Part shown: piece by piece, positions 20,367 through 53,467 of the stretch
Layout of the letters: every line of letters begins with the position of its first letter
Numbering within the stretch: position 1 is the first letter of the stretch
Source: Clostridia bacterium
GTDB taxonomy: Bacteria > Bacillota > Clostridia > Oscillospirales > CAG-272
Direction: 5' to 3'
NCBI GenBank assembly: GCA_017461765.1
Contig: JAFTXO010000014.1
Location: 10,926 to 74,925, forward strand
DNA length: 64,000 bases
Program-made: the position numbers and the translations under genes
Notes under the pieces: model-generated
What the model saw: the letters and a program-made list of their open reading frames with translations, nothing else
What the model was told of the DNA's origin: nothing
The model's database searches: none

Positions 20367-20899
20367 TGAATATAGAGGCTGAGGTTATATATAATAAGCA
20401 GGCGTTTGGCGATCTTATGAAATTCAACGCTATTCCATCACTCGCTAAGGCTATATTTTATGTTGTTAGCTTTGTCTTTGCTTTAGGGCTTATGATAACG
20501 AGTATCGGACAGCAGTTTTTTCCGATCTCGCTTGTTTTATTCATATTGGTGTGTACCGTTTCTCTTCTCGCTCTGTATTCTTATTTTATAAGACCGCAGC
20601 TTGCGCTTAGAAAATTCAATGATGATATGATCGTTACAAATCATTTCGTTTTTGAGGATGACGGAGTGAAAATGTCTTCCAAGACAAAGTCAAGGCAAGG
20701 CTCATCAAAGCTCGCTTATTCAAGCTTTGTCAAGATATGTGAGACGAAAAAATATTTTTATCTGTTTGTAAACAAAACAGGTGTTCTTATAGTTACAAAA
20801 TCGGAGATCTTAAATTCGGATGAAAAGGCTTTGAGAAGCTTTTTAAATTCGAAATTTCCCGACAGAACTAAAAACAAATTAAAGAAAAAAGGCACTTGA
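20363..20899 (+). CDS. YcxB-like membrane protein (two TM helices plus a bacterial PH-like domain)
   Basis: Two TM helices followed by [10 protein letters not shown]...[19 protein letters not shown], which is the YcxB architecture. ATGA overlap with ppa. Confidence 0.55.
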
Positions 20900-20910
20900 T
20901 GCCTTTTTAT

Positions 20911-20995
20911 GTAGGCGTGGCGGAACTGGTATACGCGTCGGTCTCAGAAGCCGATGGAGCAATCCTTGTGGGTTCAAGTCCCATCGCCTGCACCA
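20911..20995 (+). tRNA. tRNA-Leu (anticodon CAG), class II with long variable arm, CCA encoded
   Basis: Folded by hand. Acceptor GTAGGCG/CGCCTGC, D stem GCG/CGC, anticodon stem TCGGT/GCCGA with loop CT-CAG-AA, variable arm GGA-gcaa-TCC, T arm GTGGG-TTCAAGT-CCCAT, 3' ACCA. Confidence 0.9.
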
Positions 20996-21002
20996 ACAAA
21001 AA

Positions 21003-21036
21003 CAGAACTTTTGTCTACCAAAAGTTCTGTTTTTGT
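21003..21036 (+). terminator. tRNA terminator hairpin. This is copy 1 of the conserved CAACAAA..GAAC..TTTGTCTAC hairpin.
   Basis: CAGAACTTTT gtctacc AAAAGTTCTG followed by TTTTTG. Confidence 0.7.
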
Positions 21037-21047
21037 TTATCCAAGCC

Positions 21048-21170
21048 GCAGGATTGGCATATCATCGCCGCACAACGTGCGGTGTATATCATCAGCCCTT
21101 CGGGCTGTATCTCATCACGCGCCAGCGTGTATTCTCCTGCAGCTTCATGATATGCAATGCTTCGCATTGA
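21048..21170 (+). repeat. Hairpin array 1: four short GC-rich hairpins separated by TAT(A/C)TCATC spacers, the first three enclosed by a GCAGGA/TCCTGC closing stem
   Basis: Hairpins are CCGCAC-aac-GTGCGG (21068-21082), CAGCCC-ttc-GGGCTG (21093-21107), CACGC-gcca-GCGTG (21116-21129) and CAATGC-ttc-GCATTG (21155-21169). Spacers sit at 21058, 21085 and 21108. Confidence 0.6.
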
Positions 21171-21195
21171 TTTATTTGCCAAAGTGTGATATAAT
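21167..21195 (+). promoter_or_regulatory. Sigma-A promoter of cassette 1 (extended -10)
   Basis: TTGATT - 17 nt - TATAAT, with TG one nt upstream of the -10. AAAGGAG RBS at 21203-21209. Confidence 0.6.
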
Positions 21196-21216
21196 ACTGT
21201 TGAAAGGAGTGATTAT

Positions 21217-21564
21217 ATGGCTAAAAACTATTTATTGATATATTCGGAGCAGCTCGCAATCGAGATAGAGCTACTTTGTCAAAAGATAAAAGCACCTTCT
21301 AATACTTTTTTCCAAATCCGTAAGAGTTCAAGTAGCGTTTATGCGAATATTCGTGAAGCCAATTACGGGCAAAGTAAGGCTGATATGCTTTCGAAATTCG
21401 AAATAGCTATCAAAGAGTGCAGCGAAACAGAAGGCTGGTTACAGTTGTTATATAACACAAAAGGTATTGATGAAGAAACATATAAAAACTATAGAAATCT
21501 ATGTGGTCGAATAAGACGAATGTTTATTGCAAGTTGCAGAACTTTGAAGGAGAATGCGAAATGA
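21217..21564 (+). CDS. Four-helix-bundle protein (23S rRNA intervening-sequence protein / Avd-like family)
   Basis: 115 aa. IRKSSSSVYANIREANYGQSKADMLSKFEIAIKECSETEGWLQLL matches the family signature (..s..sI.aNIAEg.gr.s..df..fl.iA.gS..El...l.l). Confidence 0.7.
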   Translation: MAKNYLLIYSEQLAIEIELLCQKIKAPSNTFFQIRKSSSSVYANIREANYGQSKADMLSKFEIAIKECSETEGWLQLLYNTKGIDEETYKNYRNLCGRIRRMFIASCRTLKENAK

Positions 21565-21989
21565 TAGTTTATCATTACACAGACAAATCAAATCTTGACA
21601 ACATAATGAAGAACGGTCTTAAAGCAACCTCAAGATATGAGTCTTTTACTGAACTCAGAAAAAATGTTGTTTTCTGTTGGTTATCTCCATCTGACAATAA
21701 AATATTTTCCGATGATACGATATGCCTTGAAGTAACTGTGAATGAAAATGATTGCATAGTTGCAAGTATGGATTATATAAGCTTTGCTATGATGTATAAA
21801 TACGGGGGAGCAAAGTATGGCGGGATGAACATTCCTATAAACGAGACTGCCTCTGAATTGTTTGTAAAACTATATGATACAACTGCTATCCCTCTGTCTC
21901 AATATAGAAACGGAAATCTATTATCTCCGGAAGTGCTGGTAAAAGGAAGTATTTCTCCGGAAAACATACGAATTTACAATGACAAATAG
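21561..21989 (+). CDS. 142-aa uncharacterised protein with DarT/Tpt1-like ADP-ribosyltransferase-type motifs (hypothesis only)
   Basis: ATGA start/stop overlap with the four-helix-bundle gene. N-terminus VYHYTDKSNLDNIMKNGL (H-x-T), central VVFCWLSP, C-terminus PEVLVKGSISPENIRIY. No search or fold prediction was done. Confidence 0.3.
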   Translation: MIVYHYTDKSNLDNIMKNGLKATSRYESFTELRKNVVFCWLSPSDNKIFSDDTICLEVTVNENDCIVASMDYISFAMMYKYGGAKYGGMNIPINETASELFVKLYDTTAIPLSQYRNGNLLSPEVLVKGSISPENIRIYNDK

Positions 21990-21991
21990 TG

Positions 21992-22101
21992 TATTGACCT
22001 TTTCTTCGCTTTTACCTCGTTTTTTTACCTTTTATCACGTTTAAGGCAACAAAAAAAGAACATTTGTCTACCAAGACAAATGTTCTTTTTTTGAACGATG
22101 T
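21992..22101 (+). repeat. 3' module copy A (pyrimidine-rich box, then CAACAAA..GAAC hairpin/terminator, then TTGAACGATGT)
   Basis: Starts 3 nt after the stop codon of 21561-21989. 39 of the first 45 nt are identical to 23274-23318. The hairpin AGAACATTTGTCT acca AGACAAATGTTCT (22057-22086) is flanked by A7 and T7. Confidence 0.8.
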
Positions 22102-22236
22102 GTTCCGCCACAGCGGAACGTGATGCGTACTTCGTGCGTGAGGATGCGGAACACATCACATCACTTTGCGCCCAAGGCGCAATACATCATTATGGCGAAG
22201 CCATAACATCACTGCGCGGGCGCCGCAACATCACTA
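22097..22236 (+). repeat. Hairpin array 2: GC-rich hairpins separated by ACATCA(C/T) heptamers, plus a 12-nt long-range inverted repeat
   Basis: Heptamers at 22153, 22184, 22206 and 22228. Hairpins at 22166-22182, 22191-22205 and 22213-22227. GATGTGTTCCGC (22097-22108) is the exact reverse complement of GCGGAACACATC (22146-22157). Confidence 0.6.
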
Positions 22237-22265
22237 TTTACAAACTACTAAAATTATGCTATAAT
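22237..22265 (+). promoter_or_regulatory. Sigma-A promoter of cassette 2 (extended -10)
   Basis: TTTACA - 17 nt - TATAAT, with TGc immediately upstream of the -10. Confidence 0.6.
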
Positions 22266-22289
22266 AAAATCCGGAAAGGCGGTGAACTC

Positions 22290-23273
22290 GTGGAAGAAAA
22301 CAACTTAAAGCATATTGAAGGAAAAAAGATACGCCGACAGTATTTTAATATTCCTCTGATTATTCTATATTCATTGATGCTTGCAATCCCCTATGCTATT
22401 TTTACGATTTCGTTATGCATAGGAAAGTCTGATTCTTACGAGTGGTCATCTACGCTTTGGACATCAATATGGATTTGCTTTTTCTTTTCATTACCCCTAC
22501 TTGTTCTCAGCACATTAAACAAACATTGCTTTGGAAGAATTCTTTGTGTTCTTAATAAAGAAGGGATACATTTTTCGAATAAAGGAAAGCTTCGTTGGGA
22601 AGTAATTGAAAAAATTGAATATGTCATAGATTCAAAACCAAGATACAAAAGCGATACAAAAAAAGCATTCAGAGCAATTATCTATACACAAGGCGGTAAG
22701 CATATTGTTCTCGCCAATGTGCCTCTTTATATTGTATCACGCATAAAGAAATATCAAAAAGGGCTTGAGATCAAAATTTTAGGTATAACATCATTGTTGC
22801 CCGTTACGTTGGTTATGGTGGCAATACTACTTCTGTGTCCTTTTTATGTGGTGCTGCTTCGAAATGCACCCGGCGCTTCAGTCGCTCATTTTATTGTTTT
22901 GGCGATTATTTGGCTTATCTTTGGAATTATTCGTACGCCTATATTTGATATGTATGACATACGGTATCGGTTTTGGAGCAAGGTTTTACCAAAGAAATGG
23001 CTATCATACATGATACTCGGGTGTTATTATTCATCATTTTTTGTAGTTCTCCTTATTTTGTTTTATCTTCCCAATTGGGTTGTGGTTTCTATTCTTGGTG
23101 TATATCTGGGCATAGTACAACCGCCTATGCCTTCCAAATATGGTAGCAGTCGTTTCAACTACATACTGTCATATGATAAGTTGTGGGAGATCTATATTAA
23201 TAAAGCAGATTTTTGGGAAGATCATATAGCGAAGAACAAGAAAAAAAGGGCTGAGAAAAAGAGTAAGAAATAA
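22290..23273 (+). CDS. Polytopic membrane protein with an internal bacterial PH-like segment and a Lys-rich tail; function unknown
   Basis: GTG start at 22290, 7 nt after a GGCGGTG/AAAGG RBS. The ORF-track N-terminal extension (22098-22289) covers the hairpin array and the promoter and is not coding. Two TM helices, then VLNKEGIHFSNKGKLRWEVIEKIEYVI, then about four more TM helices. Confidence 0.6.
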   Translation: MEENNLKHIEGKKIRRQYFNIPLIILYSLMLAIPYAIFTISLCIGKSDSYEWSSTLWTSIWICFFFSLPLLVLSTLNKHCFGRILCVLNKEGIHFSNKGKLRWEVIEKIEYVIDSKPRYKSDTKKAFRAIIYTQGGKHIVLANVPLYIVSRIKKYQKGLEIKILGITSLLPVTLVMVAILLLCPFYVVLLRNAPGASVAHFIVLAIIWLIFGIIRTPIFDMYDIRYRFWSKVLPKKWLSYMILGCYYSSFFVVLLILFYLPNWVVVSILGVYLGIVQPPMPSKYGSSRFNYILSYDKLWEIYINKADFWEDHIAKNKKKRAEKKSKK

Positions 23274-23381
23274 TATTGACCATTTCTTTACTTTTACCTC
23301 GAATTTTTACCTTTTAACCGCAATATTACAACAAAGAACGCACTTTTGTCTACTGACAAAGGTGCGTTTTTTGAATGATGT
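23274..23381 (+). repeat. 3' module copy B
   Basis: Starts directly after the TAA of 22290-23273. Same pyrimidine-rich box. The hairpin ACGCACTTTTGTC tact GACAAAGGTGCGT (23338-23367) is followed by T6 and then TTGAATGATGT. Confidence 0.8.
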
Positions 23382-23556
23382 TTAGCTCTCTCGCCCTAAA
23401 AATCTTTTAGGATTTTCAAGAACCCTGAGGTACGGCTGATGTTCGCTTTGCGAAGAAGATACGGTTATGAAAGACAACAAGTTTGTCGAGCTCTCGATGA
23501 ACTTTTCTGTTGATATCATAATCCCGTTAAATTCTTGAAAACAAATCACTAAACGA

Positions 23557-51715: not shown

Positions 51716-53467
51716 ATGAAAAAGCTTTTAGCCTATATGAAGGGCTATTATAAGGAATGTATCATAAGTCCGCTTTTTAAGATGCTCGAGGCGGTCTTTG
51801 AGCTTCTTGTTCCGCTTGTAATAGCGAACATTATAGATATAGGAATTGCAAACAAGGATAAGGGATACGTTATAAAAATGTGTCTTGTTTTGGTTGCTTT
51901 TGCAATCGTAGGTCTTTCGTGTACTCTTATCGCACAGTATTTTGCGGCAAAGGTGGCAGTAGGATTTTCCTGCAAGGTCAAGCATTCGCTGTTTTCGCAT
52001 ATTCAATCGCTTTCTTATTCCGAGATTGACGATCTTGGTACATCTACTATGATCACAAGAATGACGAGCGACATGAACCAAGTACAAACGGGTGTCAATT
52101 TGACACTAAGACTCTTTATGCGTTCTCCTGTTGTTGTTTTCGGTGCTATGATAATGGCATTTTACGTTGACAGGACAAGCGCATCGTTCTTTGATCGTCC
52201 TGCTACGACATTCGTTATTGCAATTCCGCTTCTTGCTATCATAGTATTCAGTATCATGTGTGCTTCGATACCGCTTTTCAAGAAGGTACAAATGAAGCTT
52301 GACAAGGTTCTTAACAGAACTCGAGAAAATTTAAGCGGTGTTCGTGTTATCCGTGCATTCGGCAAGGAAAATGATGAGATAGGAGAATTTAAAAAAGAAG
52401 CCTCTTCACTCTTTTCGGCACAGACATTCGTTGGCAAGATATCTGCTATTATGAATCCTGCGACCTTTGCCATTATAAATCTCGCTATCGTTATGCTTAT
52501 CTGGAACGGAGCTATTCAAGTAAATTCGGGCTCTCTTTCTCAAGGACAGGTTATAGCTTTATATAACTATATGTCTCAGATTCTTGTTGAGCTTATAAAG
52601 CTTGCAAATCTTATAATCAATATAACAAAATCCGTAGCCTGCGGAAACAGAGTTCAAGCTGTTTTCGAGATATCTCCCTCAATAAAGGACGATGCATTGG
52701 ATACTGCTCCTATGATTATGTCGGAAAATGCCGTTGATTTCAGAAATGTATCTATGACATATTTAAAGGCGAGTGAAAGCTCGCTTGACGATATTGATTT
52801 TTCCGTAAAACACGGTGAAACTGTCGGAATAGTTGGCGCTACGGGAAGCGGAAAAACAACGCTTATAAACTTAATATCAAGATTTTACGATGTATCGAGC
52901 GGTGAGGTCTTAGTTGACGGAATAAACGTAAAAAGCTACAGATCCGAGGAGCTTTTAAGTAAGATCGGTATCGTTCCGCAAAAGGCGGTACTGTTCCGCG
53001 GCTCGCTGCGCGACAATATGAAATGGGGCAACGAAAACGCAAGTGATGATGAGATCATCGAGGCTATAAAAAGCGCTCAAGGCGCTGATATTCTTCTATC
53101 TAAAAAGGAGGGGCTTGATTTCTTCATTGAGCAAGGCGGAAAAAATCTTTCGGGCGGTCAAAAGCAACGTCTCACGATCGCTCGCGCTTTAGTGAAAAAG
53201 CCAAGCATTCTTATTCTTGACGATTCCTCGTCTGCTCTTGATTTTGCAACAGACGCATCACTTCGAAAATCCATATCGGAGCTTGATTTCAAGCCGACTG
53301 TATTTATCGTTTCACAAAGGGCTTCTTCCGTTATGCACGCGGACAAAATAATCGTTCTTGATGACGGAAAATGCGTCGGAATTGCAACTCACAGTGAGCT
53401 TTTGAAGCAATGCTCGGTATATGCTGAGATCTATGCTTCTCAGTTCGGAAAGGAGAGTATTGCATGA
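51716..53467 (+). CDS. ABC exporter, fused permease/ATPase half-transporter (subunit 1 of a heterodimer)
   Basis: Six TM helices plus an NBD (GATGSGKTT, LSGGQKQR, ILILDDSSSALD). Confidence 0.9.
   Translation: MKKLLAYMKGYYKECIISPLFKMLEAVFELLVPLVIANIIDIGIANKDKGYVIKMCLVLVAFAIVGLSCTLIAQYFAAKVAVGFSCKVKHSLFSHIQSLSYSEIDDLGTSTMITRMTSDMNQVQTGVNLTLRLFMRSPVVVFGAMIMAFYVDRTSASFFDRPATTFVIAIPLLAIIVFSIMCASIPLFKKVQMKLDKVLNRTRENLSGVRVIRAFGKENDEIGEFKKEASSLFSAQTFVGKISAIMNPATFAIINLAIVMLIWNGAIQVNSGSLSQGQVIALYNYMSQILVELIKLANLIINITKSVACGNRVQAVFEISPSIKDDALDTAPMIMSENAVDFRNVSMTYLKASESSLDDIDFSVKHGETVGIVGATGSGKTTLINLISRFYDVSSGEVLVDGINVKSYRSEELLSKIGIVPQKAVLFRGSLRDNMKWGNENASDDEIIEAIKSAQGADILLSKKEGLDFFIEQGGKNLSGGQKQRLTIARALVKKPSILILDDSSSALDFATDASLRKSISELDFKPTVFIVSQRASSVMHADKIIVLDDGKCVGIATHSELLKQCSVYAEIYASQFGKESIA

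Follow-up and report, generated by a model that had tools for sequence, protein, structure and literature searches.

When two short genes overlap and the second resembles a toxin, do they form a toxin–antitoxin system? The question is raised by a 64,000-nt stretch of DNA from a Clostridia bacterium (Oscillospirales, CAG-272; contig JAFTXO010000014.1, positions 10,926 to 74,925 of the forward strand), called the window below. Here gene 1, which encodes a four-helix-bundle (4HB) protein, runs into gene 2, which encodes a 142-residue protein with motifs of ADP-ribosyltransferases (ARTs). An earlier note on this DNA took the two genes for a candidate toxin–antitoxin or defence module, in which a minimal ART effector is neutralised or guided by the 4HB protein. 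Comparison with related loci points to a different answer: the locus is probably one unit of a repeated, tRNA-linked cassette of Oscillospirales gut bacteria, in which the ART is a passenger and the 4HB protein does not serve it. An ATGA overlap and a toxin-like second gene do not by themselves make a pair a toxin–antitoxin system, and the wider cassette pattern, more than the pair, is the main interest of the locus.

The gene pair is part of a cassette that follows a tRNA gene

Gene 1 is an ATG open reading frame (ORF) at 21217–21564 on the + strand (115 aa), and gene 2 extends on the same strand from ATG 21561 to TAG 21989 (142 aa), the stop of the one and the start of the other overlapping as ATGA (21561–21564). 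A longer ORF call for gene 2, starting at 21501, was dropped because every homologue begins M-[KI]-V-Y-H-Y-T. The operon is preceded by a predicted σ70-type promoter (21167–21195, + strand; TTGATT, 17 nt, extended −10 TG-TATAAT) and followed by a terminator comprising a perfect 20-bp stem and a T-run (terminator 2, 22050–22093, + strand), and no promoter-like or terminator-like site is found between the two genes on the + strand. The overlap, the single (predicted) promoter, and the single terminator are all located where the earlier note had placed them, and the gene 2 peptides that it quoted (VYHYTDKSNLDNIMKNGL, VVFCWLSP, and PEVLVKGSISPENIRIY) are all present in the translation. By sequence criteria both genes are real coding genes, and the ratio of non-synonymous to synonymous substitution (dN/dS) between orthologues is 0.03–0.33 for both, as under purifying selection. 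The Shine-Dalgarno sequence of gene 2, GAAGGAG (21546–21552, + strand), lies within the K-E-N codons of gene 1, 8 nt 5′ of the ATG.

The cassette starts right after the 3′ end of a tRNA gene and comprises a terminator, a dyad array of hairpins, a promoter, the 4HB gene, and a variable passenger gene, and this order is common to other loci. In the window, the cassette repeat begins right after the 3′ CCA of tRNA-Leu(CAG) (20911–20995, + strand; ARAGORN, Rfam tRNA 51.6 bits). Terminator 1 (20995–21037, + strand), with a 19-bp stem and a TTTGTCTAC loop region, is the first of three related terminators. It is followed by hairpin array 1 (21040–21170, + strand), in which variable GC-rich hairpins are joined by a constant spacer, TATATCATCA / TATCTCATCA, and end with one inverted unit (TGATAT plus hairpin); the hairpins are at 21068–21082, 21093–21107, 21116–21129, and 21155–21169. 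Array 1 reads as a shortened variant of the Gut-1-like dyad arrays described below. Aligned with its clade-A relatives (L009, L001, L042, L045, and L020), it shows conserved spacers and compensatory changes in the stems.

The same boundaries recur downstream. Gene 2 is followed by a conserved 3′ untranslated segment (21990–22046, + strand; TATTGACC...CTTTTACCTCG...TTTTACCTTTTAT) and by the terminator 2 region (22047–22091), which is 80% identical to terminator 1 over 45 nt. Hairpin array 2 (22094–22240, + strand), a dyad of GATG-type spacers followed by their reverse complement (ACATCAC), abuts the next promoter. The second cassette (22237–23273, + strand) has its promoter at 22237–22265, with a related extended −10, and contains no 4HB gene; its gene, GTG 22290–23273 (+ strand), encodes a membrane protein of 327 aa that spans the membrane several times and is not matched in Pfam. 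The 3′ untranslated segment is then repeated (23274–23330), and terminator 3 (23332–23373, + strand), with the same TTTGTCTAC core, ends the cassette array, after which only the first few array bases (GAATGATGTTT) are present. The TTTGTCTAC core occurs only three times in the 64 kb, in terminators 1–3. Two cassettes thus follow each other in the window, with 5′ and 3′ ends in common. The arrays of the window, some stems of which have only 4–5 pairs, escaped a strict search for hairpin clusters; the density scan then used places hairpin arrays at only two sites in the window, those flanking the module. A third site that it reported, near 52950, reads as coding sequence and holds no array.

The 4HB gene is exchanged in front of gene 2 and leads other passengers

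Gene 2 relatives were compared at 33 genome loci and several metagenome loci, and the comparison reveals that both leader and passenger genes are exchanged. Copies of gene 2 that are nearly identical are preceded by widely divergent copies of gene 1: gene 2 of L007 is 97% identical to that of L010, with gene 1 at 39%; it differs from that of L015 by a dS of 0.11, with gene 1 at 44%; and gene 2 of L014 and L015 is 92% identical, with gene 1 at 68%. The reverse is seen between L001 and the window, where gene 1 is 82% identical and gene 2 only 61%. In all, 4HB genes of at least four clades (A to D), 39–47% identical to one another, precede gene 2 copies that are 82–97% identical, so that a single conserved gene 2 has had its leader exchanged among at least four 4HB clades.

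The leader, in turn, carries other passengers. 4HB genes that are 75–86% identical to gene 1 precede genes for a lipoprotein (L040), a membrane protein (L041), a 231-aa protein of unknown function (L042–L044), and others, and 4HB genes of other clades precede genes for GNAT acetyltransferases (L008, L064, L101), an ASCH protein (L080), a DUF1349 protein (L117), a P-loop protein (L019), and membrane proteins. Among 80 4HB loci recovered by scanning metagenome contigs with the 4HB alignment, homologues of gene 2 are absent. Many different passengers share the ATGA junction, which is identical in all 12 loci of the close gene 2 clade (at least 78% identity) where it was read.

Gene 2 also occurs without the leader. 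At L006 and L020, an array and a promoter lie directly 5′ of gene 2 with no 4HB gene between them, and L020 additionally has a clade-B 4HB gene in front of an unrelated 132-aa gene; at L012, the 4HB gene is reduced to its last 58 codons. At least 13 lone gene 2 homologues (L002, L004, L021–L023, L026–L029, L032, L033, L036, and L037) retain H5 and E124 and have no 4HB gene within 5 kb. They sit among housekeeping genes (between glgC and glgD, after queA, after aspS), and an alternative conserved partner sought beside them was not found, their neighbours being unrelated. Synteny with the genes that neighbour the pair in the window is absent around gene 2 homologues in all 38 loci. Gene 2, with or without its leader, is accessory and mobile. 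Contigs that carry the neighbouring YcxB protein are from the same strain or are broken at the repeat.

Consequently, the 4HB gene is the standard first gene of a repeated cassette and not the private partner of gene 2. Surveyed for co-occurrence, as the earlier note proposed, the two genes do not behave as a unit across genomes: they adjoin each other within one clade, but there the 4HB partner is swapped, the same 4HB clades carry other passengers, and at least 13 gene 2 homologues are alone. Significant matches to known defence systems are likewise lacking, since gene 2 has none in PADLOC and gene 1 only one at E = 0.012, to part of PDC-M49A. With leaders swapped among clades, unrelated passengers behind the same clades, and lone copies of gene 2, a toxin–antitoxin or defence pair, and a 4HB protein that neutralises or guides the ART, are not supported by these sequence comparisons.

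Some copies of the cassette genes are broken. Gene 2 has in-frame stops or frameshifts in four metagenome-assembled genomes (L006, 285–710; L025, 705–1130; L034, 1499–1907; and L036, 5001–5402), and the 4HB gene has a stop in L016 (377–721) and is 5′-truncated in L010 (4211–4498) and L012 (4828–5001). These copies reflect either frequent decay of cassette genes or assembly error.

The cassettes are linked to tRNA genes and to Gut-1-type arrays

To quantify the link to tRNA genes, we counted tRNA distances for the dereplicated 4HB genes of loci L001–L118 that have enough upstream DNA. A same-strand tRNA gene ends 150–340 nt upstream of 30 of the 49, and 13 isotypes are represented; as a control, only 3 of 887 ORFs of the same loci have a tRNA gene at that distance. 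Gut metagenome contigs that cover the window provide a second line of evidence. Contig depth is 3–280× that of the flanking unique DNA at 20976–21122, 22005–22298, and 23328–23474; it reaches 31–280× at terminator 1, is elevated at array 2, and spikes at terminator 3. In the same metagenomes, the loose contig ends at these segments are the 3′ ends of other tRNA genes. The raised depth and the joins to other tRNA 3′ ends indicate that the same element follows many tRNA genes of the community, and this repetition accounts for the many contigs that break next to gene 2.

The arrays have a common architecture. Each dyad is composed of three to four spacer-plus-hairpin units, a centre in which an arm of the first hairpin recurs, and three to four units of hairpin plus reverse-complement spacer, the last of which abuts the −35 box; examples are at 21040–21170 and 22094–22240 of the window, L015 4442–4609, L058 641–811, and L066 414–587. 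Many arrays, lying between the tRNA gene and the 4HB gene, match the Rfam motif Gut-1 (RF01706; gathering score 50 bits), on the + and then on the − strand. Those at 50–74 bits include L066, L080, L109, L058, L064, L054, and L016, and matches include the arrays in front of the 4HB–ART pairs of L015 and L016. Gut-1 was published in 2010 as a non-coding RNA candidate from human gut metagenomes, with no context or function (Weinberg et al., PMC2864571). Here the motif occurs as an inverted pair at a fixed place. The arrays of the window have the same architecture with other spacers, and do not match Gut-1 at E ≤ 1.

The spacer motif tracks the clade of the 4HB protein: clade B is accompanied by GUGAAAU, clade C by AUGAUG, clade A by AUAUCAUCA in the opposite order, and a fourth clade by AUGAUAU. 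The hairpin loops of the first half-array, read on the tRNA strand, are biased to UUC(G) (72 pyrimidine-type versus 13 purine-type), whereas those of the second half-array are unbiased (29 versus 29); the dyad is thus not fully symmetric, hinting that at least the first half-array acts as an RNA made in the direction of the tRNA. Stem mismatches of the G-T and A-C kinds number 5 versus 1 and 7 versus 3, counts that are too few to tell RNA from DNA.

Integrons consist of tandem small cassettes with very diverse passengers, bounded by structured, sequence-variable palindromic elements. The present cassettes resemble them in being small, tandem, and diverse in their passengers, and in having structured variable boundary elements. 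They differ in having no visible integrase gene, in the separate promoter and terminator of every cassette, in a boundary formed by a dyad array of several hairpins, and in their site, the 3′ flank of a tRNA gene. The association of a tRNA gene, a Gut-1-type dyad array, a 4HB gene, and an exchangeable passenger was not found in the searchable literature and is, to our knowledge, undescribed.

Gene 1 is a member of the rRNA intervening-sequence protein family

The earlier note had assigned gene 1 (21217–21564, + strand), the conserved leader of the cassette, to the 4HB family of intervening-sequence (IVS) proteins and Avd, and it exceeds both curated thresholds, with 65.7 bits against Pfam 23S_rRNA_IVP (PF05635; cut-off 33.8) and 74.2 bits against TIGR02436 (cut-off 24). 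Proteins of the Avd family form basic, nucleic-acid-binding oligomers, and gene 1 is basic, with a net charge of about +5. The C-terminal motif T-[AL]-K-E-N-x-K, kept in most clades compared, encodes the Shine-Dalgarno sequence AAGGAG of the passenger. The 4HB domain is still termed functionally uncharacterised and occurs in rRNA intervening and insertion sequences (PMC11270868); it is related to Avd, a protein of diversity-generating retroelements (DGRs) (PMC10053308).

Like the 23S rRNA IVS proteins, gene 1 is tied to a stable-RNA gene. Unlike them and Avd, it lies outside an rRNA gene (none is present among its called neighbours) and has no reverse transcriptase among its called neighbours; the 4HB genes of these cassettes lie about 220–260 nt 3′ of tRNA genes, behind a hairpin array, and head a variable passenger. 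A DGR setting was considered and rejected, since the genes called over about 4.5 kb to either side of the module include no reverse transcriptase; likewise, no template/variable repeat pair is seen in 20800–22400.

Gene 2 encodes a minimal protein of the ART superfamily

Gene 2 (21561–21989, + strand) is acidic, with a net charge of about −3, and has passed without annotation. It has no Pfam match above threshold, its N terminus giving 11.7-bit matches to DUF7002 and Tpt1/KptA; it has no NCBIfam or PADLOC match, only weak PHROGs matches to families of unknown function (E = 0.0025 and 0.049), and no homologue by tblastn in phage and plasmid collections. A collection of 5.8 billion proteins contains 82 relatives of about 140 aa, all unnamed or "hypothetical", from metagenome-assembled genomes of Acutalibacteraceae, Oscillospiraceae, and other Clostridia; most of these genomes come from the guts of ruminants and other animals. 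When 1.84 billion representatives were searched exhaustively with the family profile, no more than 68 clusters emerged, including a subfamily of 215–240 aa.

The AlphaFold2 model of gene 2, built with 49 homologues, has a pLDDT of 90.2 and a pTM of 0.83, and the top 25 Foldseek matches in the PDB are all ARTs, the first 22 with probabilities of 0.85–1.00. They include DarT1 (8baq), KptA/Tpt1, pertussis S1, M. tuberculosis DarTG, OspC3, and diphtheria toxin; the best is DarT1, with E = 3.2e-3, a probability of 0.99, and a TM-score of 0.47. The best viral structural matches are small phage proteins, the few named ones being RNA 2′-phosphotransferase or DarT, and the model of a 231-aa relative likewise matches pertussis S1 and KptA. 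In a sequence search of the PDB, DarT1 is the only match besides KptA (E = 0.036 with the close profile, 5.6e-4 with the broad family profile). Among 30 diverse members of the family, sub-threshold Pfam matches are mainly to ART families, with DUF7002 (9), DarT (7), Tox-ART-HYD1 (5), and Tpt1 (5), and hhalign aligns β1-α1-β2 to a Tox-ART-HYD1-type protein over 45 columns with 90.9% probability.

The family has a mean identity of only 25%, with H5, G19, R33, Y115, P123, and E124 invariant. In particular, H5 and E124, which the earlier note had picked by eye, do not vary among the 49 close and 30 diverse members. An aromatic residue, F or Y, occupies position 38, which hhalign sets opposite the Tyr-containing GVYF strand of the HYD1-type ART; together with the conserved residues, this identifies H5, F/Y38, and E124 as the putative catalytic triad. 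Taken together, the structural model, the DarT1 profile match, and the hhalign alignment agree with the reading of gene 2 as an ART, and the conservation of H5, the aromatic residue 38, R33, and E124 supports it. Gene 2 is best called a small new family within the H-Y-E clade, and the family a minimal new variant of the known ART superfamily. Among unannotated proteins, it supplies a set of minimal (about 140 aa) candidate enzymes predicted to have an ART fold, with H, aromatic, and E positions intact.

The closest relative, by both structure and profile, is DarT (DUF4433), the single-stranded-DNA thymidine ADP-ribosyltransferase of DarTG. Gene 2 shares with it the N-terminal [LV]-[YF]-H-[FY]-T-x-x-x-N-L-x-S-I-[LM]-x-x-G-L motif and a Glu that opens a hydrophobic strand. 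It is shorter, as the earlier note had remarked (by about 65 residues), and acidic, whereas DarT is basic; its homologues stand alone, and no DarG macrodomain gene adjoins it. Against Pfam DarT (PF14487), gene 2 has no match at E ≤ 1, and its best-scoring relative reaches 16 bits (threshold 22.5); the 7 of 30 family members that match do so only at E ≥ 0.002. Tpt1/KptA, the RNA 2′-phosphotransferase, has the same fold and the motif L-Y-H-x-T...N-L-x-S-I-L-x-x-G-L, and provides many of the top structural matches, but gene 2 corresponds to the ART lobe only and lacks the N-terminal RNA-binding lobe; against PF01885 it scores 11.7 bits (threshold 26), with only profile positions 102–125 matching. 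Tox-ART-HYD1, the H-Y-D ART toxin domain of polymorphic toxin systems, is alike in the hhalign match that puts F/Y38 at the triad Tyr; gene 2 departs from it in that its acidic catalytic position is the Glu of P-E-V-L-V, it stands alone without a toxin-delivery or immunity context, and only 45 columns align. As to the rifamycin ADP-ribosyltransferase Arr, gene 2 has no Pfam or NCBIfam match at E ≤ 1, and Arr is absent among the best 50 of 62 structural matches. Membership in DarT (sub-threshold, no macrodomain), Tpt1 (single lobe), or Arr (no similarity) was therefore rejected.

The 215–240-aa subfamily (P0088–P0114) has a C-terminal helical linker and a small three-stranded β domain with an invariant H-D-D. 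This extension was considered as a fused 4HB or other known domain and rejected, with no Pfam match and no informative PDB match. The contigs of distant relatives are mostly too short for their genomic contexts to be used; one such relative (P0088; L124) overlaps a gene for a SpoU RNA methyltransferase, on one short contig.

Alternative explanations

How the two genes are related can be explained in two other ways. The pair could be a dedicated type II-like toxin–antitoxin or anti-phage system, in which a toxic ART is bound, and neutralised or guided, by the coupled 4HB protein. The layout is classic for such a system (a small upstream gene, an ATGA overlap, one promoter, and one terminator), the genes adjoin each other in most evaluable close-clade genomes despite unrelated genomic contexts, the nearest structural relative, DarT, is a toxin–antitoxin toxin, the proteins have opposite charges, and gene 2 is disrupted in four genomes. 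We nevertheless judge this quite unlikely, given that divergent 4HB genes are swapped in front of near-identical gene 2 copies, that close relatives of gene 1 precede unrelated genes, that lone gene 2 homologues have intact H5 and E124 and no conserved neighbour, that gene 2 also follows an array and promoter with no 4HB gene or only a remnant, and that neither PADLOC nor the phage and plasmid collections give a significant match. Lone copies and swapped leaders, in particular, disfavour a lethal toxin that needs a specific antitoxin. At the other extreme, the adjacency could be meaningless, the 4HB genes being selfish genes that insert beside stable-RNA genes and gene 2 lying downstream by chance. 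This would suit the presence of the same 4HB family inside rRNA intervening and insertion sequences (PMC11270868), the extreme diversity of passengers, and the high repetition of the element; it is unlikely, though slightly less so, because the ATGA junction and the Shine-Dalgarno sequence inside conserved C-terminal codons of the 4HB gene recur with many passengers and both genes are under purifying selection. From the recurrence of the junction and the embedded ribosome-binding site, expression of the passenger appears to be built into the 4HB gene, an arrangement that is organised rather than accidental.

Two further explanations concern the activity of gene 2. It may be a nucleic-acid ADP-ribosyltransferase or phosphotransferase of the DarT/Tpt1 kind that acts, independently of the 4HB protein, on the ends or bases of RNA or DNA in repair, modification, or conflict. 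DarT1 and KptA/Tpt1 are the closest structures and profiles, and the invariant R33 lies just before β2, at a position that we take to be that of the Tpt1 Arg preceding the VHL strand; the overlap of P0088 with the SpoU gene could be read in the same way. This is possible but doubtful: gene 2 is acidic, no extension for binding nucleic acid is visible in it, the N-terminal lobe that houses most catalytic residues of Tpt1 is missing, its scores are below the DarT and Tpt1 Pfam thresholds, and the SpoU link is a single short contig. Alternatively, gene 2 could modify a small molecule, as Arr does, and be an accessory resistance or detoxification gene in the cassette array. It is small, acidic, and stand-alone, and is tolerated without a partner; passengers of the same type include GNAT acetyltransferases and a P-loop kinase-like protein, and on direct reading the genes beside the gene 2 homologues of L015 and L036 resemble nucleotidyltransferase genes. 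Such a mix of acetyltransferase, kinase-like, and nucleotidyltransferase enzymes is typical of resistance cassettes. Yet Arr is not recovered by sequence or among the best structural matches, the best matches are nucleic-acid-modifying ARTs and protein toxins, and many passengers are not enzymes, which makes this explanation about as improbable as a toxin–antitoxin pair. The nearest structural relatives, which act on nucleic acids, argue for a nucleic-acid target, while the small and acidic protein, its persistence as a lone gene, and the GNAT and kinase-like passengers of other cassettes argue for a small-molecule or protein target.

A tRNA-linked cassette with an ART passenger remains the account that we favour, and several observations weigh against it. 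The 4HB gene is directly upstream of gene 2 in 15 of 17 evaluable genomes of the close clade, which leaves some functional tie between the two conceivable. No tRNA gene is present in the 150–340-nt upstream interval of 19 of the 49 4HB genes, no recombinase was found adjoining the cassettes, and the match between 4HB clade and spacer could follow from mere linkage, as the array adjoins the 4HB gene. As to gene 2, the family falls short of every curated threshold for an ART family, the TM-scores from Foldseek are moderate (0.38–0.47), and the sequence matches mainly cover the N-terminal β1-α1 motif. A search for RNA-seq data retrieved the sequence only from DNA metagenome runs.

A possible role for the leader and the passenger

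If gene 2 is active as its predicted fold suggests, it would bind NAD+ and transfer ADP-ribose to a target, as an NAD+-dependent ADP-ribosyltransferase rather than a toxin with an obligate antitoxin. Its acidity and the survival of homologues as lone genes make it improbable that gene 2 is a lethal toxin restrained by gene 1. Translation of the passenger is likely to be coupled to that of the 4HB gene, as the C terminus of the latter encodes the Shine-Dalgarno sequence of the passenger and the ATGA overlap recurs; for the same reason, the junction is a natural recombination point.

The 4HB protein, for its part, would serve the cassette or the array and not the ART; its most likely mode of action is to bind the repeated spacers, in RNA or DNA form. 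The simplest arrangement would be binding to single-stranded spacers displayed between the hairpins. We tentatively suggest, at a confidence well short of that in the cassette itself, that the 4HB protein and its cognate Gut-1-type array are a co-evolving pair that marks, regulates, or mobilises cassettes with interchangeable passengers, and would represent an undescribed modular system of gut Oscillospirales specific for tRNA flanks, with the new minimal H-Y-E ART as one of its passengers. The 4HB family, functionally uncharacterised outside DGRs, and Gut-1, an orphan since 2010, are joined here in a fixed order beside tRNA genes, and two open questions become one hypothesis, namely that the 4HB protein binds its own array. 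If this is correct, it would provide a first function and context for Gut-1 and for the IVP family, and would tie the presence of IVP proteins within rRNA intervening sequences to a general affinity of the family for genes of stable RNAs.

Neighbouring genes and further cassettes

The neighbours in the window encode a pyrophosphatase, YcxB, the 4HB protein, the membrane protein, and an ABC_ATPase; none is a macrodomain gene, in agreement with the earlier note.

At L109 (3345–3890), the passenger behind the 4HB gene begins M-I-L-Y-H-G-S, like the β1 motif of H-Y-E ARTs. Pfam has no match for it, and it may be another ART-like passenger, unrelated to gene 2.

At L064, a 6S RNA gene (2474–2655; 61.8 bits) lies between two tRNA genes, just 5′ of a 4HB cassette and a Gut-1 array. 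These cassettes may thus also adjoin kinds of stable-RNA gene other than tRNA genes.

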